Below are positions 43,057-64,000 of a DNA stretch of 64,000 nt, piece by piece. The position numbers and the translations under genes were made by a program. The stretch lies in NCBI GenBank assembly GCA_029717555.1, contig JAMDHS010000040.1:62001-126000 (forward strand), read 5' to 3'. The notes below the pieces were generated by a model that did no database searches, was not told the DNA's origin, and worked only from the letters and a program-made list of their open reading frames with translations. The stretch's first letter is position 1, and each line of letters begins with the position of its first letter. This stretch comes from Peribolospora baueri (lineage: Eukaryota).

Positions 43057-44382
43057 ATGAGCGCAGGAGCGAGCGAGGGCGCCTACAGGTGAGCTCGAGA
43101 CTGTCTTCTGCGTTCGTCTCTCAATGCTGAGCTCATTCCTGTTCTTTGCCGCCTCGCAGCTTCTCTCTTACCACCTTTTCCCCGTCAGGCAAGGTATGTT
43201 TCAGAAGAAGAGGAACTAGGGCCGCTTCCGAGCCTTACGCTTTGTGGTTGCTTCTTCCCCGCCTTTTGATCTCACCAGCTCGTGCAAATTGAGCATGCCT
43301 TGGCGGCGGTAGCGGGAGGGACTACGAGTTTGGGTATCAAGGGTGGGTTCAAATTCCTCACTAGGAGAAGATGATAAGGACTCAGTTGTGGATATGGCTT
43401 GCTCACGTTATTGCCTGCTCGCCCTTCATACACCAGCTTCCAACGCCATCGTGATCGCGACGGAGAAGAAGTCCCCCTCCCCTTTGGTAGATGACAGCAT
43501 GATCGAGAAAGTGTCCATCATTTGCCCCAACATTGGCATAGTTTATAGTGGCATGGGCCCAGACTTCCGCGTCCTTGTTGCCAAGGCTCGAAAATCCGCT
43601 CAAGCTTACTGGAAAACGTTCGGCGAGTATCCTAGCACAAGGGTGCTAGTTCAGGAGATCGCGACTGTGATGCAGGAGGCGACGCAGAGCGGGTGAGTGC
43701 TACGTCACGGGCAGATTGAGGCTAACGTCTCGATCGGAAAATGATTACCGTGCAACGTCTGCAGCCATGATGTCACCGTTCGCTGATATATTACTCCTTG
43801 TCCTCTCAGTGGTGTGCGACCTTTCGGCGTGTCCCTTCTTGTGGCCGGATACGACAAGCAACGAGGGCCGTCTCTGTACCAGGTCGACCCGTCCGGCTCG
43901 TATTGGGCGTGGAAGGCTAGCGCGATTGGAAAGAACATGGTCAACGCCAAGACGTTCTTGGAGAAGCGGTGCGTACCCATATCTAGCTGTCGGCCGACGC
44001 CATCGTTCCGCTTCTCGTTCTCCAACTCTCCCCTATCTCATGGTGCTAACTCGCTGGTCTCTCTTCTGTTCTTCTTGTGACGCAGGTATAATGATGACCT
44101 TTCCCTTGAAGATGCCATCCACACGGCGCTCCTGACGCTCAAGGAGGGATTCGAAGGGCAGATGACGGAGAAGACGCTCGAAATTGGCATCATTGGCACG
44201 TCGACTGCCACTGCCGTCGGCTCCGTAGAAGGTCAGACGATACCCGTGTTCCGGAAGCTGGCCCAAGCGGAGATCAAGGACTAGTGAGCTACCCGTTCCA
44301 TCATTGATCTTGTGATATGGACGAGCTAATGATCTGACCATTTCTTCTCCGACTACCGTCGACTTACAGCCTTGCCTTGTGA
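43057..44382 (+). CDS. PRE8: 20S proteasome subunit alpha-2
   Basis: [81 protein letters not shown]. Confidence 0.96.
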
Positions 44383-45290
44383 GCTGATTCAGAGCGTTGA
44401 TGTATGCATCTCGTGTCGGTATGTGGTAGTGCAACGAGTGCCCATCCTTGTACGATTTCGACAGCGTGAGAGGGAAAGGACAAGATCATATGACAGCATG
44501 AATCAAATGCGGGCCCGAAATGCGTTTCAGATGGCCACGTCGTAATCGTGTCCTCCATACAGAGTGGATATTGGGCGATGAGCTGGTCATGATGGGACAC
44601 AAAGGAACCCATGGCAAGGTGCTGTGCAGACTTGCCCTAACCTCACGACTGATGGGGTCGACTAGGCGACGAATAAAGTCTTCCGTCTCAGAGAGCCTCC
44701 ACTCTCTCTAGCGACGGCGATCACAGGCACAATCGTCTCCATATGAATGTCGACCTGGGCGTGCCCTCTCTCGTTTCCTCCGCTCTGGCCCCCAATAACC
44801 TCTCGACCTATCTTTATAACTTCTAGACTCCGAACCAGGCCTCATGAGCATCGCACCCCCCGTCCCTTCATACCACGTTCTCCAGCTGCGTCTACGTCTG
44901 TTCGCTCTCCGTTCCAACCTCCGTCTTTCTTTCTTCGTTCCACTCAGTGCCCTCCGGCGTGGGCTCGCGCCGAACATGGGTTTCCATCCCGCTGTTCACG
45001 TCGATCGCGATGATCCGGCTGGCCCTATACCACGCTCGCGCTGGAAATGACGGCCGACGTGAAGACCCCTTCTTCATGCCGTACCATGTACGAATGTTGT
45101 GTTAAGTGTGTAAGAAATGCCTTGATAAGAGAGAAGGGAGCCATATGGTTGTCCAGCTAGATCGGATTCTCTGGCTGCGGCAGGAGTATGGTTGCCCGGC
45201 GATCATGGACTCTCTCCAGCTCCCTCTCGTTCGCCGTCGCCTCCAGAAGTAAGCAGCCCAACGACCTTGTTGAGCACACACAGCGAACGC

Positions 45291-46531
45291 ATGCCCGGTA
45301 TCGACCTGCAAAGAGAGCTGCTCAAGCAGCAGCTGACGATCGAATAGTGAGTCTTCGCAGTGCTCCAGCGAGACGCTGATCTGATCGTTCCGCTGCCTTT
45401 TCGTGTGACCGGCACGGCACGGAAGGACGAACGAAGAGGGCTGACAGCTTTCCCCATCCGTTTCGTCAAACCGCGAATTCCAGTGCCGCTCTTCGCAGTC
45501 CTGGAACTGCTCCCTATGGAGTGTACGTCTTGCCGGACGAGCAAGACATTTTGAGTGAGTGGTGTGCCCCATTCGACGCGGTCAAGAGTCTAGGACGACA
45601 GGTCTGTGCTGAACTCGAGCCGTCTTCTTGTCGCCCACGACGTCGCCGTTTTGTTTCTTTGCGCAGCCTGGCATGGTGTCATATTTCTCCATCGCGGCCC
45701 CTACGCGGGCGGCATCTTCCGCTTCCGTCTCCGCTTCGTCCACTACCCCACCTCGACGCCAGAGCTCTACCTACCGCGAACGCTTCTCCACCCGCTCGTA
45801 GACCCGCACACCGGCAAATTTCACACCGAGCACCGGTTTCCAGACTGGAAACCGAGGAGGGATTACGTGTTCCATTTGCTCCACTACCTCAAGGCTTGCT
45901 TTAAGAGAGACGGGCTTGAGCAGATCGCGAACAGAGGGGAGCATGGGTCGGTCAACAAGGAGGTGTACATGATGTGAGTCAACCGGGACGCGCTCGTAGA
46001 GGTGGCCGGGGGCAGTTGATCCGGCATCGTGGCTGCCTGTGTTAGTGCTCATCCTGCCGGTTTTCTCTGATTCGCATGCTCCGTCCTCGTCGTCCTGCTC
46101 CGCTTTCGACCTCGCCCTTTTCTCAGGTATCGAGACAACGTGAGTGCCAGAGATCCTTACTTTGCATCGACTCGAGCCTCCATTTGCGAGGATTTGCGCG
46201 CTCATTCCTCCCTCTATAATTCCGTCGTCGTCGTCCTTTCTCATCTCTCTCCCATGCACAGCCGGCGCTCTTCGCCAAACTGGCGTCCCAGTCCGTCTCC
46301 CACTCCGCCTCCTCCACCGCCCTCTTCGACTCCGCCTCCCCGTCCCTCCCCGGCTCCTCATCTCCGGACTCGGATTCGCACATCCGGTTCTCGATGCTGG
46401 ATCCAGTACGGGAGAGCAAGCTGAGAGATATGATTTACGGCAGGGCGCTGAGGGAGAGGGAGGAAGCGGAGGAGAGTAGGGAGGAAGAGAGCGACGTGGA
46501 GAGGAAGCTCGAGCGCGAACGATCGGTATGA
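45291..46531 (+). CDS. UBC-variant protein of the AKTIP/FTS (crossbronx) family
   Basis: LTIEY...PYGVYVLP...WHGVIFLHRGPYAGGIFRF...YP...HPLVDP.TG..., with no catalytic Cys seen at the UBC position. Additional 5' exon(s) near 44845-45290 are possible. Confidence 0.8.
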
Positions 46532-47774
46532 AAGAAGGGCAGGCTGGTGTGCGATGGGTGGGTGGTGAAGTAGAGATGCAAGTCCCCCTCGGTGGGCGGA
46601 GGACTGATCGCCCCTTATACCGTACTTAGTAGCGGCACGACGTGTGCGACGGAATTGATACCCTTCTTCTCATGGCTCCAACCCCGGATCACAGCTGAGA
46701 TCAGCTCCTTCGCGTGGCAGCGAATATATCGTCCCGGCCAAAGAAGTGTTATGTGCGATTATGAGAGAAGGAAGGAAAGAACTATGACGGGGCAAACCCG
46801 CCGGAAGAAGAGGGAGTCAGAGCCAGGACCCTAAGGGCAGAAAGGGGAGTAGGAACGGGTGCTATGTTACACGGAGCCATCGACAAGGGGAGATGAGCGG
46901 ATGGATGGACGAAGTGCGCTCACTGACTGGCTCCCTCGCCTCAGGTGCCTGCAGAGGCCACGATATGACTTGTCATCATACCCTAGATGAGCCTAAGATG
47001 TTAGGAGAGATGTGAAGGACGGAAAAGCAGCGGAGGGGGAGGCAAGGTGGCGGGCGCGCGGAACGTAGGGACCGAGACGGGGGAGCATGCGGCGAGGAAA
47101 GAGAGGCATGGAAAGGGAACGGGAAGGGAAGAGATCGAATCTGCGGAGCGACGCAGGATCGGACAAGGAAAGCGAGGTGCGCACAGAGGAAGACCGGAAG
47201 GGAAGTGTGAAGAGGTAAAAGTTACGAACAGGTCATGGCTGCAGACCATCGCCGGCCGGTGCCCAAAGAGGCAGGGCGGTAGGTGATCGAGTCGCAGCTA
47301 CGAATAGGACAACGGGTGGAAAGACGAGAAACAGAGAGAGAAGAGTGTGGATGAGGAAAAGCGCACGATTGTGTCTCCGAATCCACCAAAAGGTGACAGT
47401 GAGACCGGATCCTTCATTCTACGCGACATTTGCTTGCTTTCTTGCTTGTTGATCACCTCCAACTTGCTACGTGCTTGTCTGACTGCGTCACTCCGTGCTA
47501 GGTGGCCATACCTGGCCAAGTTGAGAAGAGGTTGGGATGGGAAGAACCGAGCGAGCGTCCGGCGAGCTCCTCAAACACATGTCGAGTCGATCGTCGAGTA
47601 GAAGGCACGGCTGAGCCTAGGGTACCAGCGCCACCGCCATTCTCCCACTCGAATCTCTCCCCTTTCCCCTCCACCTTCTCTCCCCCGCGGCAGCGCATCC
47701 GTCCACCTACAACTGGCCCTCCCAACCTAGCCGCCAAACACCGCACGAGCCTTGCCGCAGGAACCATCAACGTC

Positions 47775-49070
47775 TCACATAACCTGGCACTTGCTCGGCT
47801 CCGGCTGACCATGTCCTGCTGCGTTCTTCTCGATTTCACCCAGAGTGAGCTCGAAGACCTTGGCTGCATGCGCACGACAGAAAACGACCAAAGTGCAGAC
47901 AACTTTGGTGAGCACTCGAGGACCGGACGACAAGACATCTTTGCACGAGCACTCCTCGACCCAACGCATGCACTCACCGATATTCTCGTTATGCCGAGCG
48001 CTCGTTTCCGTCCAAGCGGATTTGAGCTTTGCTGCCTGTGCCCTGCCTTCCTCTTCGGAGACTTGTCTACCAGACGTGTTCGTGTGATGTATTCGAAGAA
48101 GAGAAACGGAAATGCAATCCACGTCAGCGTTCCACAAGCCAACTTCTAGACGAGTAAAGCGATCGTGCAATGTGCCGCCGTTCTAATCGGGGAAAGGATC
48201 GGACGAGTCCTCACCTCTGGAGCTGCAGGTCGCACTTCTGTCCTACGATGACGCACGGCACTTCCTCCGTGCCGGTATAGCCGAGAATCTTGTCGTGGAT
48301 GATCTGCACCATCTCGAAGCTGGAACGGGAGGCGATGGAATAGACGAGGACAAAGGCGTGGATTCCGATCGCATGGCGGGAGTTAAGGATGCTGTACTCG
48401 TCCTGGCCGTGCAGGGGGGTCGAAATAGAGGGATGATGAGAGCGGTCGAGCGATGGCAGGAGATCGCAGGTAATGACAAAGGTGGAACAGATGGATCGGA
48501 GCACCACGTCCAAGAGAAGGGAAAAAAAAGAAAAAGTCGAAAGCACAGATACGAATGTGATGAGATAGTTGACCAAGGCGTTGGAGAGAACGGATGGATG
48601 CTCACCTGGCCAGCAGTGTCGATGATGTCGCATTCGTACGTCTGGCCCTTATACTTGACGGGCTTGTTGAAAACGTTCTCGATCGTGGGGTAGTACGAGT
48701 CGACGAAAGCGTCCTCGACAAAGCGGACGACGAGCGAGGACTTGCCTAAAAGAGTGGGGAGCGGAACCAATGGAGGCAGACAGGATGGGAAAGAAGACGA
48801 AGAGGCCGGTCAGTAGCCGTCATCCGTCGGCGGTCTCCCTGCCCATACAGCGCGTCAATCGGCTCATGAAGGCGAATAAGCTGCTCTCAGAGGCGACGAC
48901 GATGGGACTGGGCTTGGCTTTCGAAGGGAGAGAGACAGACAGGCATGGATAGAAAAAAGAGAGCGGGTGAAGGCGAAATGTGACGCACCGACGCTACGGC
49001 TTCCGAGCACGGCAATCTTCCGCTTCTTGGCATCCAATGGGGGTTTGGTAATGGCGGCGGAAGTAGCCAT
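47775..49070 (-). CDS. RHB1: Rheb small GTPase
   Basis: RKIAVLGSRSVGKSSL, FVDSYYPTIEN, DTAGQDEYS, VGQKCDL, ETSAR and CAAX box CQVM*. Confidence 0.96.
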
Positions 49071-49447
49071 TTCGGGAGGGGAGGACGATCAACGATCAGA
49101 TGAGGAAAAGGAAGGGAGGAGTGAAGCGAGGGTGCGATCGACGAGGCCGGGCCGCAAGGACCGGATGAGCCGTCCAATGTGTCAGACCGACGACGAATAG
49201 GGCGAGGGGCGCGAGAGAAGGCGAGAGAGGAAGAAACAGGGAGAGGGCGACGTGAGGAAAAGACGGAGGAGGGAAGGCAGGCGACGTGGTGGGGAGAGGA
49301 AAGGGGGTGAGGGAAGGCGGTGAAAAGAACGACGGCGACGAAACTGAAACTGACGGCTGACCGCGTCGGCGACTTGTTTGTACACTGGGGAGCTGCGGCA
49401 GGTCTCCCTAGGGCTTAGATGGTCATCCGCGCCGCAGATCTCATCGC

Positions 49448-49547
49448 GGGGTAATGGTCTAGAGGCATGATACCTCCTTCGGGTTGTTCCGAATCGATTC
49501 GATTCACAGATTGGAGGTGGTCCCGGGTTCGACTCCCGGTTACCCCC
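49448..49547 (+). tRNA. tRNA-Pro(CGG) with 28-nt intron (49484-49511)
   Basis: Acceptor stem GGGGTAA/TTACCCC, D arm TGGTCTAGAGGCATGAT, anticodon stem CCTCC/GGAGG with loop TT-CGG-G[intron]T, T arm CCGGG-TTCGACT-CCCGG, and a Pol III T6 terminator at ~49552. Confidence 0.93.
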
Positions 49548-50599
49548 CTCGTTTTTTGGCGGTTTTTTGCGCCACGGTAGCGTGCTTTTCATTTTACATC
49601 CCGCTGGCTCGATTGTTTTGTTGCTCGCATCAGTCCACTGGTTAGGGCTTTATTAGAAATCCTGCTCACAACTAATTTGCTCCACCGTACAATTTCCACG
49701 GGGCCCGGCAGCATTAGTACTGTGACGTCCCTCAAACCGCGCGCGCCTCCCGTCCGGTTGCCAACCCTTTGAGTATGGGTTCATTGGGTTGGCTTTCTGT
49801 TTTTCTGCCCCTTCCTGGCTCACAATCTGTCCTCGCAATTGCCTTGTCCTTGCGGGCGCTGAGCGTGCTTGCTCGGGCTCGCGATCCTTCGTTGCGGTCA
49901 GGTTTCCTGGCCACGGCGATGATCGTTCGCTTGACATCCAATAGGAACAGAATTAGACGAAGGAATGCACGACGGTCGACGAGCGAGCCTTGCTCTCCTC
50001 AACGCCATGCGTATGTGTGAAGGATAGTCGTGACGGAGCAAGTCACAAACCGTCGATCGCATCCCTAGGCCGTTCTGTAAAAAACGAGCGAACCGCTGCG
50101 AAGGGCGGATTGCCGGGGATGACCTTGCGCGTATTCCGTTCAGCCGTCTCAAAATCTCTTCATACCAGGCCCGTGCGCGGAACCAGGAACCGGCCCGCGG
50201 GTACTGCGGGGCGCTCCGATGCAGGGGTCAGGTGGTGCACAGCGGGGTATGGCGCAGAGGTGGCCATGACCGCATATTACCACCTATTGCCGCACCCATG
50301 CAATAACGTGAATGAGGCCAATCACTCGTTGCACTCTCACCGTCGTATCCGCGTCGCTCCCTCTACCTGCATATGCTTTATGCCGGCGCCTCTTTCCTAT
50401 TCTTACCGTGATTCATGTCTGCTTCTGGTTCTCTGGGCATTTCGTTTTATTCGATAGTGAGCACTTAGCAGGTCGAGATCCGCGGTTGGACACAAGCCCA
50501 AGCGCGACAGGGAGCGCTGGCTTCCCTGACACGTAACGGTGAAATGTTACATACGGAGTCCGGACCTCAACCTGGAGATCCGGAATGCCCGGCGGAAGT

Positions 50600-51200
50600 C
50601 GTTCGACGCCGTGAGTGGTGGATCAAGCCGATATCTGGGGTGAGATCCCTCTCATCCTGCTGCCCTGGTGAACGATCAATCATCGCTTAAAGCTGATTGA
50701 CCCATCCTTTCGCTATGTGAAGAGATATCCGAAATGCCCAGAGGCATTCTGGCAGCAGCTCAGTGATAAATTGAGCTCTAGTGATCGATCGTTGGGAATC
50801 CCCGGCCGACATTAGCTACCTCGTACCGCCCAGTTCACCAGTTCGTGACACTACGTGAAGAGGTCAAGGACAAGCTCGCTAAGCTCGATAACCCTGAAAC
50901 ACTAGATAACAGGCTCTTGGCCAGGAGGCCAGAGAGGAAGGAAGCGGTATGCATGATACCCGGAACAAGAATAAGTATGGCAGCAGTAAAGTCCTCGGAG
51001 CAGGCAGCCATGTCTAGGGCCCAGAACCAGAACTCGTCGAAGGTCGCGACTTTGACGAACATGAACACGGCACACAAGCCCCGCTCCAAGTTGATGGAAG
51101 CGCAAAGGGCCGAGTACAAGGCAAGGGCAAGTGCTTTTACTGCGCGGAGACGGGACACATGTTTAGCAAATGTCCCGAGAGAAATAAGAACCCGACGGCC
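50600..51200 (+). mobile_element. Decayed Ty3/Gypsy LTR-retrotransposon relic (pre-RT pol fragment + gag zinc knuckle)
   Basis: 50630-50780 reads DIWGEIPLILLPW*TINHRLKLIDPSFRYVKRYPKCPEAFWQQLSDKL, the fungal gypsy LPP.R.INH.I.LID...P.CP segment with an in-frame stop. 51090-51180 reads KLMEAQRAEYKA / frameshift / GKCFYCAETGHMFSKCP, a CX2CX4HX4C knuckle. Confidence 0.75.
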
Positions 51201-51539
51201 TCAGCGAACATGGTGTGTACAGTAACCCCTCTTCCATGGAATCCAACTCCGTTTCCCAAGGCGGAGCAGGCGAGTGGGGCAACGTGCCACTCTATGAAGA
51301 GGCGTGATCGGAGCATGTCTACACCTGGCAATGACCTTTTTTCCTTGTCTGTACTGTACCTGCCGTCCTCCGAGGCAGTTCCACATGCCCGACATGGCAC
51401 GCACGATCCCTGGCTCAGAGATTTCCCGGGGCAATTGCGTCTCACAATAGCGGCGAGACGGCGAGGAGGCGTGGCTCCTGGCCCGGCCTAAATTAACATG
51501 AGTACAGTGAAGCGGGGCCCGCCCAGAGTCAATATAGAG

Positions 51540-51680
51540 GAGCGTCAATATGGAGTCGACAGGAGACACGGAAACGAGAGTCGATATAGAATCGAGAGTC
51601 GATATGGAATCGAGAGTCGATATGAAAAAGAAAGTCAATATGGAATCGAGAGTCGATATGAAAAAAGAAAGTCAATATGC
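51540..51680. repeat. Imperfect ~18-bp tandem repeat (gagagtcgatatggaatc)
   Basis: About 6-7 degenerate units, including the variant gaaagtcaatatg, lie immediately 3' of the PKS stop codon. Confidence 0.85.
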
Positions 51681-51682
51681 AG

Positions 51683-54600
51683 TCAAAGAGCAAGGTAAGA
51701 GGCGATCTTGCCCATCAGCCCCTCGTCGACGACGGGGCACGTCTGCAGGGCTTGCGAGCATGCGGCCGTCTCCTCCACAGACAAAAGAGCCGCCCCGCCG
51801 ACAATTTCCTGCTCGTCCTCATTCTCGAGTTGCCTTTCGAACCAAGGAAGGAGGTTGGTCGCATCGTACTCAATGCTCGACGACGAAAGCTGCTTGAGGA
51901 GGGCGACATAGTCGCGAAAGTTGGTCGGTCTGACCTTGATGCCCCACGCCTTGGCGGCCGCGGTGCAAATGTCGGCCCATTCCGTCCGGTGCGGGTTGGC
52001 CACATGGTAGAACAGGTTCCCCGATCGCTGCTGTCCCACAATCTCCACCATGCTCCTGGCAGCGACGTCGACCGGGACCCAGTTCGTCGCGACCAGGTCG
52101 TAGGGGACGATGCCGTTCAGAGCGCGCATGGTCGTCAGGACCCGTGGAGCCCATTCGCCTCTGCGCCACCGGCCTCGCTCGAGGTCGCCGCAGACCTGGC
52201 CCAGGCGGACAATGTGCAAAGGATCGCAGCCGACGTCTGCGGAAAACGAGGAAGAGCACGATCGACACAGCGCCGACAAAATGTGTTCGGCCAAGAGCTT
52301 GGACATGCCGTAGCCCTTTCGATGCGCGATCAATCGCAAATGTCAGCACATCGAGTCGCGCCGAAACAAGCGCCGTCGTGCCCACCCAGCCTTCGCGCGG
52401 ACCATCAAATGCTCACCTGGTAGATTGCCATCGCCGGATCAAGCTGCACGGGCTCCTCGGGAACAGTCTCCTGCGGGGACCCGATGCACGACGCGATGGA
52501 CGAAATGAAAAAGAGGTCGATCGGCCTCTCTCGGTGGAAACACAGTTCGGCGAGATTGCGCAACCCTGTAGCGCACGGGAACAGACTTCCTGTTAGAAAC
52601 GCGCCTGCAGCCCTGGAAAGAAGTGTGCGGCTGCTCACCGCCAAGCGAGGGCTCGTAGTGTTTCAGACTCCGGTTGAAATCGACCTGCCAGCCGATGTGC
52701 ACCGCGCCCGTGACGTCGCCGAGGGAAGCGTAGTCGGCTTCGCTGAGGCCCATATGAGCAGCGGCGAGGTCCGTCGACGAAAGCGCCTGCAACTCGCCAG
52801 CTTGATGCTTTTGCAACAGGAGCACGTCGTCGAGACCCCATGCTTTGCATGCGCCAGAGATGCGCTCGAACCCGCCGTTACGGACGATAGCAGTGACTCG
52901 CGTGCGCGTCGTGGCCAGCAACTGAGAGAGAAAAAATGCGCCGACAAAGCCGGTAGCGCCCGTCAGTAAGAGGTGCGGGGGCACGGTTCCGCATGGTTCG
53001 TGAGGCCGGTCCCTGCGCAGGGTCGTCGCAGTGAACGGCGCTGCGTAACGGGACAGCATGTCGAGCATCTCCTCGCGATGCAATATATGGCCCGTCGGCG
53101 TCGAACAACTTCCTGACAGGTACCTCGCGAGCGCTCGTGCGTCGGGACAGTCGTAGATGGCGCGGGTCGACACATCCATGCCCAGACGGTTAAGCTCCCG
53201 TCTGAGATGGGTCGTCCCCAACGAGTCGAGGCCGAGCTCGACAAATGGCGTGCACGGCTCTATAGATTTCGTGTTCGCGTCCACGGGCAGGACGCGTCCG
53301 AGGGCCGATAAGACGGCCATCTCCAAGCTGTTGAGACTGTAGACGGAACGTTGGAACAGGTCCAATGTCAACCCTCGTGCCAGGAATCGCTCATACACAG
53401 ACCGGGTCTTCCCTTACCTTTGTCGATCTGGGGATAGCGGCGTCGGCGGGAAAACCTCGGACGTAGGCCGAAGGGGATATGGCGGTGACTTGATCAAGGG
53501 AAGCTCGGCACTGTGTCGGGCTTGCGACCTTCTTCGCAGTGGAGAGAATGTGGGAGACGGCCACAGGAACTGCCGGTCGAACGGATACGTGGGAGTTTTG
53601 TGCAACTTGCGGGCCACCGAAGCCGTGTCGCGGTGGAAAGCTGCCCAGTCGAGATCGGCGCCTCGGTTATACATCGTGCTCAACGCGAAAGTGACATCCT
53701 TGCTCGTGTTCGCTGGCTGCAGTGAGGGTACGACAGACAGACTCGTCGTTCTCAACAGGAGTTTGGTGAGCTCGGGCTCCGGGCCGATCTCCAAAGCGAG
53801 CGCCTCTTTGGGCAACGCGCTGCTGCAGATGGCTTGGAAGAACCGCACGGGCTGACAAGCCTGTCGCATCCAGTGTGCGGCATCTGTTCGGTCCACCACG
53901 TCGCCGGTGAGCGAAGACACCCATCGAATGGTGGGCCGCTTAAACGCGTAGGACGATTCGAGAGACGTGAGGAACGTCGCGAAACGGCCGCTGATGAGAG
54001 GCTCCTCCAGTTCCTGGACGTGGAACGGTTGCTTGCTGCGAAGACCACGAAGTGACAAGCGCTTCAGCGTGGCAAGTTGGGCGAATTTCTGTAGGGCCAC
54101 CTCGGAGCCGGACACCACTTGACGGTCCGCCGCATTGTACGCGGCGATGACGGCGCCGCTGTCTTCCGCTAGGGGGAGAACCTCCTCGGCGCTGGCGGCG
54201 ACCGAAATCATGCCTCCGGAAACACGACTCGAGGCCATTTGCATGGCCCTTCCGCGGTAGCACACGAGTTCCAGACCCTGCTCCAACGTCAGACTGCGCG
54301 ATACGATCGCAGCCGAGTATTCGCCGAGCGAATGCCCCACTACGACGCCGGGAGTGACGCCCCACGTTTCCCATGCGGCGGAGAGACAGAGTTGGAAGGC
54401 CACCAGCAGAGGCTGCAGGACGACGGTGTCGTCCGGCTCGTAGACGTCCGCGCCGTCCTCGAAAGTCGGATCGTCGGCGTCCACCAACGCTTGAAGATCG
54501 AGGCCGATAGCGCGTCGCACGACTTTGGCACACCTTTCCCACGTTTGCCGAAAGGCATAAGACTGCTCCAGTAGCGCTGGAATCTGGGATAGGACGGCCA

Positions 54601-57600
54601 CCGCGGACGATTGGCCGGTGAAGACAAAGACGATCGGTGCACGCCGCGTAGCCACGGAGGAGGACCCGGCCAAAAGCGAAGCAAACCCGTCGAGGTCCTG
54701 GAGCATTTGGCGTCGGCAGGAGACAGGTATAGCGATGCGATGTGAAAAATGCTCTCGCCCAATGTTGGAAGTATAGCAGAGGTCGGAAAGACCGGGGAGT
54801 GATCCGGCAATATAGTCCCGCCACTCGCGCACGCTGTTGAGTAGCGAAGTCGTCGTCTTTGCCGAGATGGTCAAAACAGGCAGTTTGACACAAGAGGAGG
54901 CACGCCTCGGCGGGGGAGGCTCTTTGAGGACCAGCTGGCCAATCGTTCCAGAGAAGCCGAGCGAGGTGAGCATGATCCTCCGTGGACGCGCCGTACGCTC
55001 GTAGGGAACGTGCTCCAGGGGCACGACCATCTCGCAGGGTTGCAATCGCAGGTCGGAGCGCACTCTTCGGATGTTCTGCCCAGGCAGCAGGTTGTTCTCA
55101 AACGAGGCCACGGCACGAGCGATGCCTACGGACGGTGATAGGCAACGCGGCAAGCAGGGACGTCAGGCACGGCCGGCCTTCAGACATAGGCGGCAGCGCT
55201 CACCTGCAAGGCCAGCAGCTTCTTCCAAATGGCCTACAACGGACTTGACCGACGACACGAACAGGGGGTCTTTGCGCTCCTGAGAAAAGGTCGCCTTGAG
55301 CGCTTCCATCTCTGTCGCAGAAAAGAGGAGCTGAGCATAAGGGGACCTGCTCGCTTGGCAGCGCCTCCTCGAGCGCGCCCTCAAACTCGGTCACCATTGT
55401 TGCTCACCGAGTGCATCCCCGAGCCTTGTCCCTGTGCCGTGAGCTTCGACGGCGTCAATGTCCTCCGGGCGCAATCTCGCCGATTTTAGGACGTTCTGCG
55501 CAAGCCTTATCTGCGCTGCCGCATTGGGCGCCATTAGACCGATGGACTTTCCATCGCTTCCGATGGACGTGCCTTCGATGATGCCGAGGACGGGATCTTG
55601 AGCGGACACGGCGTCATTTAGCCGCTTCAACACGCAGAAGAAGGCCCCTTCCGAGGGGAGGTACCCATCTGCCTCCTCGCTAAATGCCGCGCTGTGTCCG
55701 CACGCCGAACCGAGGCCTGCCCTCGACATAAACGCAAAGTTGCTGGGGTCGAGGTGCGTTGTGGTGGCGCCCACGAGGGCCAGCTGAGTGGTTCCAGCTC
55801 TCAAGTCCTGACATGCGAGGTGAATGGCGGTCAAACTGCTCGAGCAAGACGTTTCCACGGTCATTGCAGGCCCGTGCGTGTCAAGGAAATAGGCCAGCCG
55901 CCCGGAGACCATGGCGTTGGATTGGCCCGGTCCCCAGAACAGATCGTGCGCTGCTTAAACGGAAGGATCGGCGCCGGACAGATCTTAGTTGGAGACCGCG
56001 ACCAATGGAGAGCCGACTGTTCGATAGCAAAGTTGGGGGACTCACCGTCGTTGCCCTTCCCTTCCGTCACCTTCCGAAAGCCCTCGTCATCGACCGCGGC
56101 CACGTAGATGGACGTGTCTGTATCTTTCAAGGTCGACGGAGGGACACAAGCGCTCTCCAACGCTTGCCAGGCGAGCTCGAGCGTCAGCCGCGCGCTGGGC
56201 CGCATGGCTTCGCCTTCGGCCGCCGAGAGGCCGAAAAATGCCGCGTCCATCTCTTCGACGCCCTGCACGCCTAGCCAGCGGCCAGGAGGAAGCTCCAACC
56301 CCGTTTGGCGTTCATATTCTGCAAAGGCGGTACGGCGCGGTGGCGCCGGTGACGCTGGAGAAAGGCCGCCCTGAACGATGGCTTGCCAGAACTGGTCCAG
56401 CGTGTGAACGTCGTCTGGCAGGCGACACGACATGCCGATCACCGCGATGGCCCCGTCGGAAGAGGTAGGACGCTGGGGGAACCCGGCGGAGGAGTCGGGA
56501 TCGACCTCCGCTTTGATGGTTTGCGCTACGCGCGGTTTCTCTGCGCGGACGATGCCAGCAATGCTGCCTCTTGTAATGACTTGGGCAGCGGTAATGTCAA
56601 GGCCGACCTCGCGACGCAGGGCGGTGGCGATACGGCTGGCGTCGAGGGAGCTCATTCCGAGGTCCGTGAGGCTGTCCTCATCGCCGAAGGAGAACTCGCC
56701 CTTCGCGGGCCCGAGGAGCATGTTTTCCACGACCCGCCTGACGTTGGCCATGACCTCAGGATCAAGGCGCTGTAGGCTCGGGTCATCGCCGCCTTGGAGG
56801 CGACGATCAGGCTCATCGTCAGATAGACCGAGGACGCGGAGCACTTGCTCCGCGCGAGCGTCGATCAAGGAGCGATAAGCGCCCCACACCTCCTTGGTGC
56901 TGACGGTACCCTTTCGAGTGAGCGGGATGGCCTTTGACGGTGGGAGGACAATTAGTTGTCGAGGGCTGATGCGCGCAAACGGCGGCAAAACACGATTTGC
57001 ATGAAGGAGGCTGCCGTAAATGTAGTCGAGGCGGGCCTCGCCGGAAGCAGAGGGTGAAGTGTCCGGGTTCTCCACCACCGCCAACAAAAAGTCGCTCAGC
57101 CCGTGTTGACTTGGAACCCCCGCATAAAAAAGGAAGCGTCACGTCAAGAGACAGACACAGAGGTGCTCGATGCATAGCAAGGCACTGCCACGCACCTGTT
57201 CCCGATTACACAAGCTCTGCCAAAACCGCCCTTGTCTCGAAGCACCCTCTCCACCTCGAGCGAGTTGCATTTCTCGCCCGTCTTGAAAATGATGTAGTCA
57301 GCGATCCTATCTCCGCCTACAAACCCGGAGGTCGTCCTCTTGAAGACGCAGCCTGTGCGGAAGACGCCTTTGCCCTGGTCGTCCAAGCCCTGCAACGCCG
57401 GATCAGACCGTCCGATATATGCCGCCGGAATGCCCTTGGACTTGATGACAAGCTCGCCAACGTCGCGCTCGTCAAAGCCGGGCACGGTCTCGACAACATG
57501 CTCGAAAGTGGGGATCGGGAGAAGCGTCTCGGTCGAACTGCCGGGCGGACAGTCTGCGGCGGCGCGGCTGAACATGATGGCACCTGCGACCGAGAGGGCG

Positions 57601-58847
57601 GGGTGAACGTCCAACGGCGCCTGGGGACATGGGATTCTTGGCAACGTCGGCACTTACCGGCAGCCTCCGTACTTCCGAATCCGTTCACCATTCGAAGCCT
57701 CTGCGCGTCCGCCCAATCCCTCACTTCCGGCGGGATGGGCGCGCCTCCGACAAGGATGACGTCCAATGCGGATAGGCAGTCGTCGTCGTCCGCCGATCTG
57801 CACTGTTGCCACGCGGACACGACGACTGGCGTGCTGGTGAACGAGGTGACCCCATTTTCCTTGATCAGGCAGAGGAGATCCTTGGCTCCCTCCATTGTGG
57901 TGATCGGGGCGATTTTGGGCAAAAAGTTATAAGTGCCGCCGGTCGCGACGCAGATCGCCATCCACTCGGCGCAAAGGCTGCGAGCGTGCAACGGTCAAGT
58001 TGAGAAAAATGGGGAGAAATGGGGGAAGGATGGACAGAGCGTGGCCGACTTACGCAAGGATGTGGTTCAGCGGCATCACCGCTAGCAATTGCTGTGGCCT
58101 CTCCCTGACACGATCGTGCAAGAGCGCGTGGACACCGCGCACGCTTTGGAGCAGAGCATAGCCGGTCAAAGGGACGCCCTTGATGGAGGCGACCGACACC
58201 GCCGTCGTGGTGAACATGAGCAAGGCGGGCTTGCGAAAGTAGTGATCCTCGTCCAGAGCAGCCGCCCGGTCAGAAAGGCGTGAAGAAAAAGACGCGGAGG
58301 ATCGAGGCAGCTCGTTGTCGGATCGCTTGGTTGGTGCCGCAAGTGCAACTCGAACCACTTCGGCGAGGCACTGCCACTCTAAGCCGTCCTGCGAACACAC
58401 CTCCTTCACGATGCTTTCCACACTCTGGGAGCAGAAGCAGCAAACGCACTTGGAAAGGGACAGCATGCCGGCGAGAATATCGGAGCTGACGCCGTGGGGC
58501 ACAAGGGACACCGTGCATCCCAGGAGCCATCCAGCGAGCATGACCAGCAGGAATTCTGGCGAATTGTCCGCTACGATGGCGAAGGTGTCGCCCGGCCGTA
58601 GACAGTACCTCTTGGAGAGGTGGCGAGCGATGTCGTCGACATAGACCAGCGCCTCTCTGTAGCTAAAGGCGGCGGGGAGGTCTGCTCCAGACGCAGGCGA
58701 CGGGCTCCTGCTCGCACCGTTGTTCCCATCCGCGGCGCCCAGACGACGAAGAAAGACGGCATCCGGGTTGACGTGGGTAGCGGACGCATGAAAGAACAAG
58801 TAGGGGTCGCTTTCGCTCTCCGAGGGTATGAGGACGCTGTCGTGCAT
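51683..58847 (-). CDS. NRPS-like/type I PKS hybrid, domain order A-T-KS-AT-T-R (hispidin-synthase-like core plus terminal thioester reductase)
   Basis: A domain (FTTTAVSVASIKGVPLT, GFGSTEAAG, GELVI, PLTRKG). T1 DLGMSSL (~56650). KS IAVIGMSCRLP, ETSCSSSL (Cys ~55845), EAHGTGT, VGHLEEAAG. AT VFTGQ, GHSLG (~54330), conserved Arg. T2 ELGLDSL (~53225). R LLTGATGFVG, FISS, GYGMSK. Exons are joined by GT-AG introns. Confidence 0.92.
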
Positions 58848-60101
58848 CTTCGGCGGCGGCTCATTGCATCGTGGGATGACGGCTCTCAAAGACGTAGAAT
58901 GTCTTATAGTCCGTGCACAGACGCCCTCCCGCCCGGCCTGTGCAAGGGTGGAGCCGTCCGCCAGCACCGCCCCTACAAGCCAAGCGATAGCCGAGCCAGC
59001 CCATGGCTTTGAAGGGATGTGTCCTCGCCGACCTCATCACATAGTGAATCGGCCGTCCGACCGCTGGGCAAGCTTCTGTTTTGCACCCGCTCGCTCAGTC
59101 AGTCGTCCGGCTCCAGCCCCAGCAGGCTCAGCTTCATCCGGCCACACCGTTCGATCCGAAATGGGGCCGCTGTAGGCGTCTGCTGCGTGCCTGTTGCACG
59201 CCGCCAGCACGTTTCTTTGTCTTGATGTTGTCTCGGTACGTTGGCCTGGCGAACGCCGCGGAGATGCGGCTCTTTCTACGACTGGCATGTGTAGTGCGGC
59301 TGAAGCGATTGTTCGATCGCCAAGCTGCTTGCCGCCGGAGGTTGACAGAGGTCGCTTTCGCGCTGGAGTTACACCCGTCTAATGGTTAGGGCGCAGGCTA
59401 AAATAGTGTCGAGAGCCGCTCTGGATCCACGTAAGGTCGATCTTGGCTGCGGACGCCCCCTCCGCTCCACCCGTTCTCAACGTCGTCACACCACAAAACG
59501 TCGCGGATGAAGCCGACAGCCACGCTCGCACTGACGGACACACGCCACGTCGCAGGGACGAGGGAGCTGTCCGGCTCGTTTCAAGGCCAGCCGTGCGCGA
59601 TGGATTTAGGGCCGGTCTGGCTTGGGCGTAGCGACGAACTACTGCAATCGGTGTCGGCGGCCGTCGAGCCGAGTCTCATGCTGCGTCTTGGTTCAAAGCC
59701 GTCCTGGAGCTTCAAGGCAGTGCCGTTGGTGACGAGACGATAGAGAACTGTTGTCCTGTGCCGCTCAAGCTGCTCGCCGGCCGCCTCACGGGATGCGAGG
59801 TTGCGGAGGTCCGAATTCGCTCGCGCATTCCAAGGCGATGGCACCAGAACGTGAGGAGCTTCCGTCTCTCGCTCAGTCACCAGTTTCTGGCGCACAAGGC
59901 AAGGTCTTTTCCGCCGTGGTTGGTGACCCTCACATCGCTCTCTCGGGAGCTCATCTGCTTAGGGTCGTGCCCCCACGTCGGCGCTCGTTTGGATCGGCAC
60001 TCGAGGAACCTGGACGCTGGCAGCAGCAGCTCTCCGTTGCGTGGCCACGGCATCACAGACGTTTAACTTGCCCAGAGTGCGACAGGTCCCTATCTATTTA
60101 G
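58848..60101. promoter_or_regulatory. Putative bidirectional promoter shared by the PKS hybrid and PAL
   Basis: A ~1.25-kb interval between divergent start codons with no credible gene. Function is inferred from geometry only. Confidence 0.45.
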
Positions 60102-63100
60102 ATGCCATCTGCCATCTGCGCCGACAAGCATTCCTCCCCCGAAACGGCTGAGCCCTCTATCCGCTCCTTCTCAGTCAACATGAGCCCCGCTCGTCACTTT
60201 GCGTCTCATGCTGTGGCGCCTTCTGACCCCGTCGGTCCTCTGGCCGCCGAGTGCGTCGCCTCATGGCAGCGCCTTCAAGCTTTGAGGAGCCACAGCTCGC
60301 CATCGGCGACGACGCCAGCTCTTCTCCAGGTGGACGGGCAGACAATGAGCATCGCGGACGTGGTTGGCGTAGCGCGGTGAGTGATGCCGACCGAGTTGCC
60401 CATGCGACCAGGGTGCCGAGCGCAAAGGCAGGACCCGTTTCTTCGTCGTCTTCGTTCTTCGCGGCCCCGGAAAGAGGTTAGGAGCTCAGAAGGAAAAAAA
60501 GAACCGCGAGGACGTCATAACAAACAAAACAACATTAGTAGGCCACAGACGGAAACGGCTCATCCTGACTGATGCTCTTTCCCTTTCTCGCCGTCCAATC
60601 CCCCGGTCCCACTCGCTCGGCACCGTTGCGGCATTTCGACCCCCCAGCTACCATGTCGTCCCGCAACTGAGCGACTCGTCCGTGGTTCGCTCTAAGGTCG
60701 ACGCGGCTGTGACGTGTTTGGTCGCCAAGCTCGAGGCCGGCGAAAGCCTGTACGGTATCTCGACCGGGTTCGGAGGCAGCGCTGACAGCAGGACGGGCGC
60801 GCTGCACGCACTTCAGGTACGTGGCCTCGGAAATGTTTTGTCATGCCGCACAGGAGACAAGCAAAAGGGGTAATTCCGTCATGCCGTCGAGACGTGTGCG
60901 GCCGTTCGTCGCCATTGGCGAGTGAGATTTTGACAACGGCTTCCTGCCTTGCTGTCGCTCCCAATCGTTCCTTCCCCTGGCGTCGTTTCCTATCCCCCCA
61001 CCGCCAAATTCCCAGCTTGCCCTTCTCCAGCACCAACAAGCCGGCATCCTGCCAGTACCCGCAAAGCTTGATGGAAACATCGGTCTGCAGCACCGTTTGC
61101 CCGACGGAGATGCCCGCCAGAACGGGACCGGGCACCAGCAGGGAGCCCTGAAGAAGAAGCCGCTCGGCTTATCAGACGAATTGGCCAGTCTGTCCATGCC
61201 CGAGAGTTTCGTGCGTGGCGCCATCCTCGTTCGGATCAATTCGTTGCTCAGAGGCCATTCTGGTGTGAGGTGCGCAAGGGCATGACCCACGAGCGGCCGT
61301 TCTAACTCGGGCAATGCCACTCGCTGCTCACGCGTGCGAACACATGTTCATCCTTCTTCTGTCGCCACTTCGTTTCCGCCTTTTCATCGACGGCCTTCTT
61401 ATGGGCATCGTTTCCAATCGTCGCGTCGACGCTAGGTGGAAAGTCATAGAGGCGATGCAAACGTTCTTTTTCGCCTCCCCGCTGGGCCCCGTCACCCCGT
61501 TGGTGCCCTTGCGCTCATGTGAGTCGGCCTCGATGGCTTCCAGTGGGAGTGCTCATAAACTCGATCGTCGCTGACTGGCGATGTTATTTCTAATTGGATC
61601 CGTACCCTTACTGCAGCCATCAGCGCCTCTGGCGACCTCTCTCCCCTCTCCTATGTAGCTGGAGCACTCACAGGTCACCCTGGCTTGCGTGTCTGGCAGA
61701 ACCGGTGAGCATTGATTTTTTTTTTCCGCTAGAGTTGTCGAGGCCGAGATGCGCCGATGCCGCTTCGGACTGCCGGTCCCTTTTGTTGAAGTGGTCCGCA
61801 CTCCTTGCTGCGCTCGTAGGGCGGACGGAGCTCGGGAACTCGTTTCCTCCGACGACGCGCTCAAGGTCCACAGCATCGAGCCGATCACTTATGAACCCAA
61901 GGAGGCACTCGGCATGGTCAACGGTGAGCCGCGCGGCAGCCGGGACTGCTGATCGCCGTAACCGGGCCTCTTCTCATCGTGTTTCACCCGGTCTCACATC
62001 CCGTCTGTCTTCGGCTCCACAATGCGCCAATCCAAAGGCACGGCGTTCTCGACCTCGGTCGGCGCCCAAGCCGTCCATGACGCTAGCTTCCTGGCCCTGC
62101 TGACAGAGTTCACGACGGCCATGGCTGTGGAGGCGCTCTGTGGTACAGATGGATCTTTCATCCCGTGAGCCGCCTTTGCGCTTTGATGACATTTTGCTCA
62201 TTTGCCACAGGATCTGGGCCATGGTCTAGGGCGGTGCTGATGTGCATGCTCTCCTCAGCTTCATTCACGACGTCGCTCGGCCCCATCCTGGCCAAGTGGA
62301 GAGCGCAGCGACTCTTATGAGCCTCCTGGACGGCTCATCGCTTGCAACGCATGTCGCCGACGAAAAGGCGACGCTACTCGGAGAGGACGATGGACACCTC
62401 AGGCAGGACCGCTACTCTTTGCGTACGTTCTAGGCACGAGGTTGCCGAAGCCCGCTCATCGCTCATTGCAGGCATCTAAGCTGCTGTTGCCGCCACCGCT
62501 CCCACCCCGTCTCTGCGACAAACTTGTAGGCACCGCTGCTCAGTGGATTGGCCCACAGATAGAGGACATCAGGGCGGCGCGTCGGGCCCTGGAGATTGAG
62601 ATGAACAGCACGACGGACAATCCGCTCATTGATGCCGAGAGCAACCACTGCGCTCACGGCGGCAACTTTCAGGTAAGAGGAGCGAGGCCCCGGCGGAGGG
62701 CGACCAAACTACGAAGTGGGATAGCGGAAGGATGTCAAAGAAAAGGAATCTGAAAATTCGGACGATCCGCTCGGCCGTGGTCCTACGCAGGCCATGTCCG
62801 TGACCAACGCCATGGAAAAGGTCAGGTTGGCCCTAGTCCACCTAGGTAAGTCGCGACATAGAGGCGCTCCTTTCGATTCATCTAGCTAAGCCCCTCGCTC
62901 CACCGCCGATGACTCGATAGGCAAGCTTACCTTTGCTCAGCTCACGGAACTGATCAATCCGAGCATGAATCGCGGGCTCGCCCCCAACGTGAGCACATGT
63001 CGAGTGGGGCTGACCACGGTTGTCCGGCTGACTCTGCGATGCTCCTGATCGACGGAAACCATCCCTCCTGCTATAGCTGGCTGCCACCGATCCGTCGCTC

Positions 63101-64000
63101 AACTATCATGGCAAGGGCGTGGACATTGCCATCGCCGCCGTGACTGCCGAGCGTGAGTGGACCAGTTGTCCGTCTTGGCTAGGAAGGGGGAGACCGCGGG
63201 CTGAACCGGCGGTCGTGTCACTTCGATGCTTTCAGTCGGCTTCCTCGGATCGCCTGTGTCCACTCACGTCCAGAGTGCCGAGATGCATAATCAGGCCGTC
63301 AACTCTCTGGCCCTTATCTCAGCCCGCAAGACAGTCGAAGCCGTCGAGGCGCTTTCAATGGTACGTTTCGCACTTTGAGGATGGCCTGGGTGCGTCTATG
63401 GTCCGCTGACTATCTGCCGACTTTCTCGCACCGTAGATGCTTTCCTGGGCGCTTTACCTGCTTTGCCAAGCCGTTGACCTGCGTGCGCTACAAAAAAGGG
63501 TCTCGACCCAGTTGGAGAGGTACGTGGTCGACTCGGTCAAAGCCCGCTTCGGCGACCTATGGGGCCCGGCCGAAGCCGCCATTGCGGCCGCGAAGGTTTA
63601 CCATCGCCTCGCGAAGCGTCTCGCGGAGACGACCACAATGGACCTCAAGGAGAGAATGGCAGACTCGTGCGCATTCGCGAGCTACGAGCTCTTGGAGAGG
63701 TGAGTTTGGAGCTCTGTCTAGCTGCATTTTCCCCATCGCGCAATGTCCGCTGAAGGTTTGGTCGTCGTGACAGGTGTGAGCAGGGTGCCAAGGCGGGCGC
63801 CAGCGACGCATGGGACGCTGTGACGGCCGCCTTTGCTTGCCGCGACGAGTGGGCCGCGTACGGGGAGCGACTCTTCCTGTCCGAGACAGAGGCTTTGCTC
63901 TCCTCCCCGTGCTCTTGTCACGCTGCGCCGCTGCTCGGCCGCACGCGCACAGTGTACGAGTACGTGCGCAAGGAGCTTGGCGTGCCCGTGCACGGCATGG
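60102..64000 (+). CDS. PAL: Phenylalanine (tyrosine) ammonia-lyase, MIO-dependent; 3'-truncated by the window end
   Basis: [56 protein letters not shown] (ASG 61625-61633), [62 protein letters not shown]. Confidence 0.97.

Follow-up and report, generated by a model that had tools for sequence, protein, structure and literature searches.

A predicted HispS-like hybrid synthase with a terminal thioester reductase lies beside an aromatic ammonia-lyase gene in the fungus Peribolospora baueri

The stretch of DNA analysed here, called the window, comprises 64,000 nucleotides (contig C340:62001-126000 of a 22.7-Mb fungal assembly) and carries a hybrid synthase gene on the minus strand at 58847-51683. 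Three-frame reading and a listing of splice signals give a model of 10 exons with 6405 coding bases and 2134 amino acids, from an ATG at 58847 to a single terminal TGA stop at 51685-51683, with no internal stop or frameshift. The nine introns are all GT-AG and measure 73-101 nt. The Pfam matches across 10 of 10 exons are AMP-binding, AMP-binding_C_3, PP-binding, KS, Acyl_transf_1, PP-binding, and NAD_binding_4, and the domain order is A-T-KS-AT-T-R (Table 1). The KS residues Cys891, His1026, and His1064 and the AT residue Ser1338 are intact. KR, DH, and TE families were not matched in any of the 10 exons at E 0.1, SAT and product-template domains were not found by Pfam in any exon, and the linker following the AT had no Pfam match. 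An 18-bp tandem repeat (window 51527-51679, 6.7 copies, 73% matches) follows directly after the stop codon.

Table 1. Positions of the synthase, its predicted exons and domains, and the adjoining ammonia-lyase gene in the window
Feature	Position	Strand	Remarks
Synthase exons 1-5	58847-58054, 57977-57658, 57583-57196, 57109-56046, 55950-55408	minus	predicted spliced model
Synthase exons 6-10	55311-55204, 55125-53418, 53336-52639, 52565-52417, 52315-51683	minus	predicted spliced model
Adenylation domain	56840..58847	minus	Pfam; A3 loop at 58214 glycine-free, HispS-type; A5 and A10 motifs present
Carrier domain T1, LGMSSL (Ser655)	56540..56690	minus	Pfam PP-binding 2.3e-7
Ketosynthase, Cys891, His1026, His1064	54918..56452	minus	Pfam; x-P-S-x-R-L-T-L-E replaces DPQQRLLLE
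Acyltransferase, GHSLGE (Ser1338)	53689..54631	minus	Pfam Acyl_transf_1 8.1e-37
Intron 7	53337..53417	minus	81 nt, in frame, contains a stop; predicted removal joins T2-R to the PKS
Carrier domain T2, LGLDSL (Ser1680)	53117..53314	minus	Pfam PP-binding 6.3e-11
Thioester reductase (extended SDR) domain	51683..52972	minus	Pfam NAD_binding_4 E 8.7e-12 and 9.2e-4
Divergent intergenic region, synthase start to PAL start	58848..60179		1.3 kb
Phenylalanine/tyrosine ammonia-lyase gene	60180..64000	+	Pfam Lyase_aromatic; ends about 220 bases past the window

The AT serine and the T2 serine lie 342 amino acids apart; for 379 such pairs from retrieved PKSs the median is 1036, and 40 of them are at 400 amino acids or less. 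Such a short distance indicates that no reductive loop is hidden in the synthase. Hidden KR or DH exons were ruled out, since about 240 nt separate the post-AT motif from T2 and 81 of these are intron. An earlier note on this DNA had described T2 followed by a thioester reductase without KR, DH, or TE, and this is borne out by Pfam and by the AT-T2 distance. The motifs it quoted are all found on the minus strand, namely LGLDSL at 53236, LLLTGATGFVG at 52972, HIGWQVDF at 52699, FISS at 52509, GYGMSK at 52315, and IVRLGQV at 52213. Its right border, 53400, falls within intron 7 (53417-53337), between the exons of the AT and T2.

The R region consists of three exons (53336-52639, 52565-52417, and 52315-51683), with GT-AG introns of 73 and 101 nt between them, and T2 shares one exon with the first half of R. 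If intron 7 is retained, the protein ends after 1642 amino acids and the extension carrier is lost. In a leave-one-out score, 8 of 9 donors, including that of intron 7, exceed 386 of 386 decoy GT sites. The intron 7 acceptor is matched or exceeded by 49 of 367 decoys (31-289 for the other introns), and the acceptor score does not separate real sites from decoys. A branch-like TTGAC is present in intron 7. The GC3 of the three R exons, 0.75-0.78, is in line with the 0.63-0.76 of the other seven synthase exons. By predicted splicing, T2-R is part of the same polypeptide as the AT. It is highly improbable that T2-R is a separate transcript or that the locus is a pseudogene undergoing decay in DNA rich in transposons. 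Such a state would fit the in-frame stop right behind the exon 7 donor, an in-frame methionine (Met1648) early in exon 8, the retroelement pieces on both flanks, and the A7 substitution described below; however, the two parts lie only 81 nt apart with a strong donor and the branch-like TTGAC, a PKS without T2 has no extension carrier, and the 6405 coding bases contain neither frameshift nor stop.

The R domain contains TGATGFVG, Phe1862, Ser1897, Tyr1926, Lys1930, Gln1964/Val1965, and Glu1978, and the Rossmann glycine motif and Ser-Tyr-Lys triad of CAR/NRPS-type thioester reductases are present. In the PDB, the last exon matches best to the R domain of the Neurospora carboxylic acid reductase NcCAR (8AEP, E 3.3e-12), followed by that of MxaA (7e-6), and the T2-R exon has matches to carriers of PKSs and to PKS/NRPS R domains. 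In the available part of PMC10168641, the NcCAR R residues are given as Phe780, Ser815, Tyr844, Lys848, Gln873, Val874, and Glu888. The Phe-Ser, Ser-Tyr, and Tyr-Lys spacings of 35, 29, and 4 are equal in both domains, whereas the Lys-Gln spacing of the synthase is 9 longer and its Gln-Glu spacing 1 shorter than in NcCAR. The genome has four stand-alone A-T-R-like genes (on C427, C362, C11, and C10), each about 25% identical to the synthase R, and the T2, linker, and R of the synthase align with the T-R cassette of these reductases. The matches and residues support an R domain of the fungal carboxylic-acid-reductase type, intact-looking and, by its residues, catalytically complete. According to the accessible text of the respective papers, CAR R domains can over-reduce to alcohols (PMC10168641), and unreduced polyketides of fungi leave as aldehydes when released by an R domain (PMC5591372).

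With the four stand-alone A-T-R genes (L005, L033, L034, and L035) and KS matches on at least eight contigs, the genome, at 22.7 Mb, is rich in secondary metabolism for its size. Bunt fungi are described in the available part of PMC9172201 as having larger genomes and one PKS cluster. A stand-alone NAD_binding_4 gene (L029:3300-5100, minus strand, C373) has a long Ser-rich N-terminus and is fatty-acyl-reductase-like by eye; it was not matched by the synthase R domain.

The A and KS domains were compared with HispS by eye against part of the alignment in the PMC9866795 supplement, a comparison of motifs and not a tree. The A3 loop has the same length as that of nnHispS in that supplement, has no glycine-rich turn, and is identical to it by eye in 9 of 17 residues, in agreement with the HispS likeness that the earlier note had proposed for it. 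The stand-alone A-T-R genes of the genome and the clustered ligase have canonical A3 loops, unlike the synthase. The KS motif of the synthase is R-P-S-A-R-L-T-L-E, and the HispS-family rows shown in the supplement have S-P-T-M-R-L-A-L-E and S-P-S-V-R-L-T-L-E. Among 595 KS sites from 353 retrieved, mostly bacterial proteins, D-P occurs in 576 and a non-Asp residue plus Pro-Ser/Thr in none. The likeness of this motif to the HispS rows shown holds, but the "RP" once put forward as its mark is not a common feature; what they have in common is x-P-S/T-x-R-L, in which D and QQ are missing. An 86-amino-acid KS segment is identical to nnHispS at 35 of 86 positions by eye, and the values for retrieved PKSs have a median of 34% and a best of 43.7% (n=221). 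As the value for nnHispS lies within the range of the retrieved PKSs, identity does not discriminate the HispS clade. Motifs support the A and KS domains of the synthase as HispS-like. A HispS-type paralogue was not found in the genome, the one weak match being to another AMP-binding gene, and the other KS loci examined (2 loci by Pfam) are a SAT-type PKS or fatty acid synthase.

The Asp of the A7 motif binds the ATP ribose. In the synthase this motif is FRTGC, with Cys450 where the conserved Asp (TGD) is expected; Asp is present at A7 (FRTGD or YRTGD) in 4 of 4 PDB alignments shown and in the genome's own CAR. The absence of this Asp, and the free CoA ligase in the same cluster, had been missed by the earlier note. 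The A domain is full length and retains the motifs with the A3 lysine, the A8 arginine, and the A10 lysine, as well as A5. The A7 Cys may leave it weak or dead. It is distinctly unlikely that the A domain no longer adenylates and that cinnamoyl- or coumaroyl-CoA for T1 or the KS comes from the clustered 4CL-like ligase, with R still releasing reductively. The Cys for Asp exchange and the canonical motifs of the ligase point in this direction, while the other A motifs and the full-length domain speak against it. The ligase is equally well explained as a donor for the clustered acyltransferase, and the PKS part of FnsA refuses coumaroyl-CoA (PMC9606254, accessible part).

The PAL/TAL gene stands head-to-head with the synthase, 1.3 kb apart, and the two may share a promoter. 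Its exons, read by eye, carry the MIO-forming Ala-Ser-Gly and a His-Gln switch, and His-Gln marks dual Phe/Tyr ammonia-lyases according to the available part of PMC3789393. A second, intron-rich PAL copy (C373:21070-24950, L006/L007) has a matching exon layout and is 59-93% identical by exon, which indicates that the clustered PAL arose by duplication. The second copy is also His-Gln, and the switch is therefore not special to the cluster.

Past the window on the PAL side are genes for a DUF6533 membrane protein, a GMC oxidoreductase, and a carboxylesterase (Pfam). Further out are the 4CL-like AMP-dependent ligase, a Tri3/PapA-type acyltransferase, a Ty3-type element, a flavin monooxygenase (FMO-like), and then a mitochondrial carrier. 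The genes from the GMC oxidoreductase through the FMO-like gene all lie within about 30 kb. The far end of the cluster is uncertain because the acyltransferase is separated from the monooxygenase by the retroelement. On the other side, downstream of the synthase, there are retroelement remnants, a tRNA, a Ras-family GTPase, a ubiquitin-conjugating enzyme, a proteasome subunit, and CLPTM1, and the gene cluster is flanked by housekeeping genes. This neighbour scan applied Pfam to long ORFs in window 40000-64000 and 40 kb beyond, with 150 of 152 listed ORFs in one scan. Neither a transcription-factor family nor, in the long ORFs, a chain-shortening enzyme family was matched among the cluster ORFs scanned. 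Because they are adjacent, the synthase, PAL, and tailoring genes may act together and be co-regulated.

The DUF6533 membrane-protein gene (L003:1600-3075, minus strand, C340), between the PAL and the GMC oxidoreductase, encodes a possible sensor or regulator. The tRNA is a tRNA-Pro(CGG) (window 49448-49548, plus strand) with a 28-nt anticodon-loop intron; it was found by an intron search with a relaxed score, and the default scan missed it. A 317-base stretch at window 50472-50780 is 96% identical to part of the Ty3-type element in the cluster about 35 kb away, and a gag-like zinc-knuckle remnant was seen by eye near 51140-51190, with no Pfam match. Related mobile DNA is thus present on both sides of the cluster. 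No Rfam family was matched at 44000-64000.

The synthase is most likely one intact iterative hybrid, in which a HispS-type A-T1-KS-AT unit is combined with a fungal CAR-type T-R cassette. We put a probability of roughly 0.55 on one spliced synthase taking a cinnamoyl or coumaroyl starter, extending it without reduction, and releasing it with NAD(P)H as an aldehyde or alcohol. A cinnamate-type starter is suggested because a dedicated PAL/TAL adjoins the synthase. The facing PAL/TAL would provide cinnamate or p-coumarate, and the aryl-acryloyl unit would be placed on T1. The KS and AT would then extend the chain on T2 with malonyl units, leaving its keto groups unreduced, and R would cut the thioester with NAD(P)H to an aldehyde, possibly further to an alcohol. 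As C1 would be released below the carboxyl level, the alpha-pyrone of hispidin could not form by the reductive route. After two extensions, the likeliest fate would be ring closure to a 2-styryl-4-pyranone; after three, aldol closure could give a dihydroxy-styrylbenzaldehyde. An alcohol product could be a substrate of the clustered acyltransferase, fed by the 4CL-like ligase. The product is probably an undescribed cinnamate-derived compound and not the usual pyrone. Reductive release, as first proposed in the earlier note, is favoured by the anatomy, the complete R domain, the HispS-like A and KS motifs (by eye), and the PAL beside the gene as a sign of a cinnamate-type starter, but the chain length, oxidation level, ring type, and identity of the products are what we infer.

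The main product might still be a styrylpyrone formed by spontaneous lactonisation from T2, with R clearing stalled chains or reducing the unextended starter to cinnamaldehyde or cinnamyl alcohol. This is unlikely. HispS needs no release domain (PMC6294908 and PMC9866795, available parts). Just as there, a triketide on T2 can lactonise unaided, possibly faster than R acts. A product-template domain that could hold a reactive poly-keto chain is absent, and T2-linker-R resembles an ordinary CAR cassette. Against this, all the NcCAR catalytic and nicotinamide-contact residues that could be placed are kept despite about 25% identity to other R domains, and the clustered acyltransferase and GMC oxidase suit an alcohol or aldehyde product.

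A starter other than a cinnamate, with the same reductive release, is very unlikely, be it benzoate or hydroxybenzoate derived from cinnamate or, as in AnATPKS and SwnK, an amino acid. FnsA takes p-hydroxybenzoate besides p-coumarate (PMC9606254, accessible part), and AnATPKS makes amino-acid-derived pyrones, as far as the available text on it goes. The A3 and KS motifs, however, follow the HispS rows shown in the supplement, the PAL is the nearest gene, and no chain-shortening family was matched among the long cluster ORFs scanned.

A more far-reaching version of the preferred cinnamate-derived reductive release is tentative and rather unlikely. It holds that the fused HispS-type unit and CAR-type T-R cassette founded an undescribed phenylpropanoid-polyketide pathway in which the A domain gave up adenylation and the synthase and acyltransferase both draw on the 4CL-like ligase. 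Reductive release would then lead to a styryl-4-pyranone, a stilbene aldehyde, or a cinnamate ester, mimicking plant phenylpropanoids without a type III PKS.

To our knowledge, few fungal NRPS-PKS hybrids have been assigned a product; where the starter is an aryl acid, the product is at the carboxyl level (pyrones, naringenin). If the synthase is aldehyde-releasing and non-reducing, it would represent a natural domain swap that alters the ring made from the same starter. A single protein would then lead to aldehydes or alcohols derived from cinnamate, and the HispS family would be seen to have been re-used outside mushrooms. With a dedicated PAL/TAL and tailoring genes at hand, the product can be tested directly.

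No row with the order A-T-KS-AT-ACP-R occurs among the 502 fungal NRPS-PKS hybrids catalogued in Supplementary Data 1 of Zhang 2022 (PMC9606254), and every R-ending row in that table has a KR. Four agaricomycete rows (PAV20656.1, PPQ84953.1, SJL14749.1, and a Megacollybia contig) are labelled A-T-KS-AT-KR-ACP-R, and four smut-group rows (PWN40245.1, CEH14722.1, SPO35310.1, and EPQ31802.1) have no R as annotated. None of these is characterised, and they are compared here by table label only. The accessible part of a Psilocybe survey (PMC9400892) describes reductive hybrids with KR plus DH and no R, so the KR-ACP-R label could have been miscalled. If the label is right, the four agaricomycete rows may be an uncharacterised precedent for an R on a HispS relative. 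The A-T-KS-AT-T-R architecture is not named in the available parts of PMC11186289, PMC12634532, and PMC8582187. Neither a described A-T-KS-AT-T-R enzyme nor a smut hybrid cluster was found in the literature covered; subscription papers on AnATPKS, HppS, and SwnK and bioRxiv supplements lie outside that coverage and may bear on novelty.

Among the homologues listed, A and R families occur together in 0 of 120 and 0 of 82 proteins. When the AT exon, the A-C/T1/KS exon, and representatives served as queries, mainly bacterial PKSs were returned, and the best 150 homologue representatives are all multimodular PKSs. The R-exon search gave 1 match among 1814 candidates, an A-T-R-kinase protein at 24%. 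The metagenome scan for orthologues confirmed 0 of 133 candidates, and the Atlas search gave only generic AMP-binding and KS/carrier clusters. An orthologue did not turn up in these sequence searches, which are weak evidence that none exists.

HispS has the order A-T-KS-AT-ACP, with DH and KR additionally present in its non-glowing orthologues (PMC9866795, PMC6294908, and PMC10621269). SwnK is A-T-KS-AT-KR-ACP-R (PMC8403587), and FnsA is A-T-KS-AT-DH-KR-ACP-TE (PMC9606254). The endings assigned to them beforehand (carrier, R with KR, and TE, respectively) agree with these papers, as far as their available parts go.

The synthase resembles HispS of Neonothopanus nambi (QJQ48095.1), for which caffeic acid is the precursor of hispidin, in its domain order through the second carrier without KR or DH, its glycine-free A3 loop and Asp-less KS motif (by the part of the alignment compared), and its probable aryl-acryloyl starter. 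In contrast, it adds a C-terminal R after T2 and the A7 Cys, and its neighbours are a PAL, a ligase, and an acyltransferase and not luz/h3h/cph; no luz/h3h-type hydroxylase or FAA hydrolase was matched by Pfam in long ORFs of window 40000-64000 and 40 kb beyond. With SwnK (swainsonine) it shares the NRPS-PKS order, the terminal R, and the predicted reductive release, but there is no KR between AT and carrier, a pipecolate starter is unlikely beside a PAL, and no swn cluster families were matched near the synthase. With FnsA (naringenin) it shares a probable aryl acid starter on an A-T-KS-AT hybrid, whereas DH, KR, and TE are lacking and release would be reductive, not Claisen-type. Because it fails a tested defining feature of each, the synthase is not a member of HispS, SwnK, or FnsA.

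Fungal carboxylic acid reductases (A-T-R) have the same R family, catalytic triad and spacing, and T-R linker, but the synthase has KS-AT-T between A-T and R, and its A domain is HispS-type, at about 25-30% identity. Group VII non-reducing PKSs with R (MOS and relatives) release, as proposed for the synthase, an unreduced polyketide as an aldehyde through a Ser-Tyr-Lys R domain (PMC5591372, accessible part), although the synthase has A-T loading instead of SAT and no product-template or methyltransferase domain. The hybrids of Zhang 2022 include R-labelled members in mushrooms and A-T-KS members in smut relatives; unlike the synthase, the four agaricomycete entries carry a KR and the smut-group entries have no R as annotated. 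The synthase most likely works like a HispS-type synthase with CAR-type reductive release.
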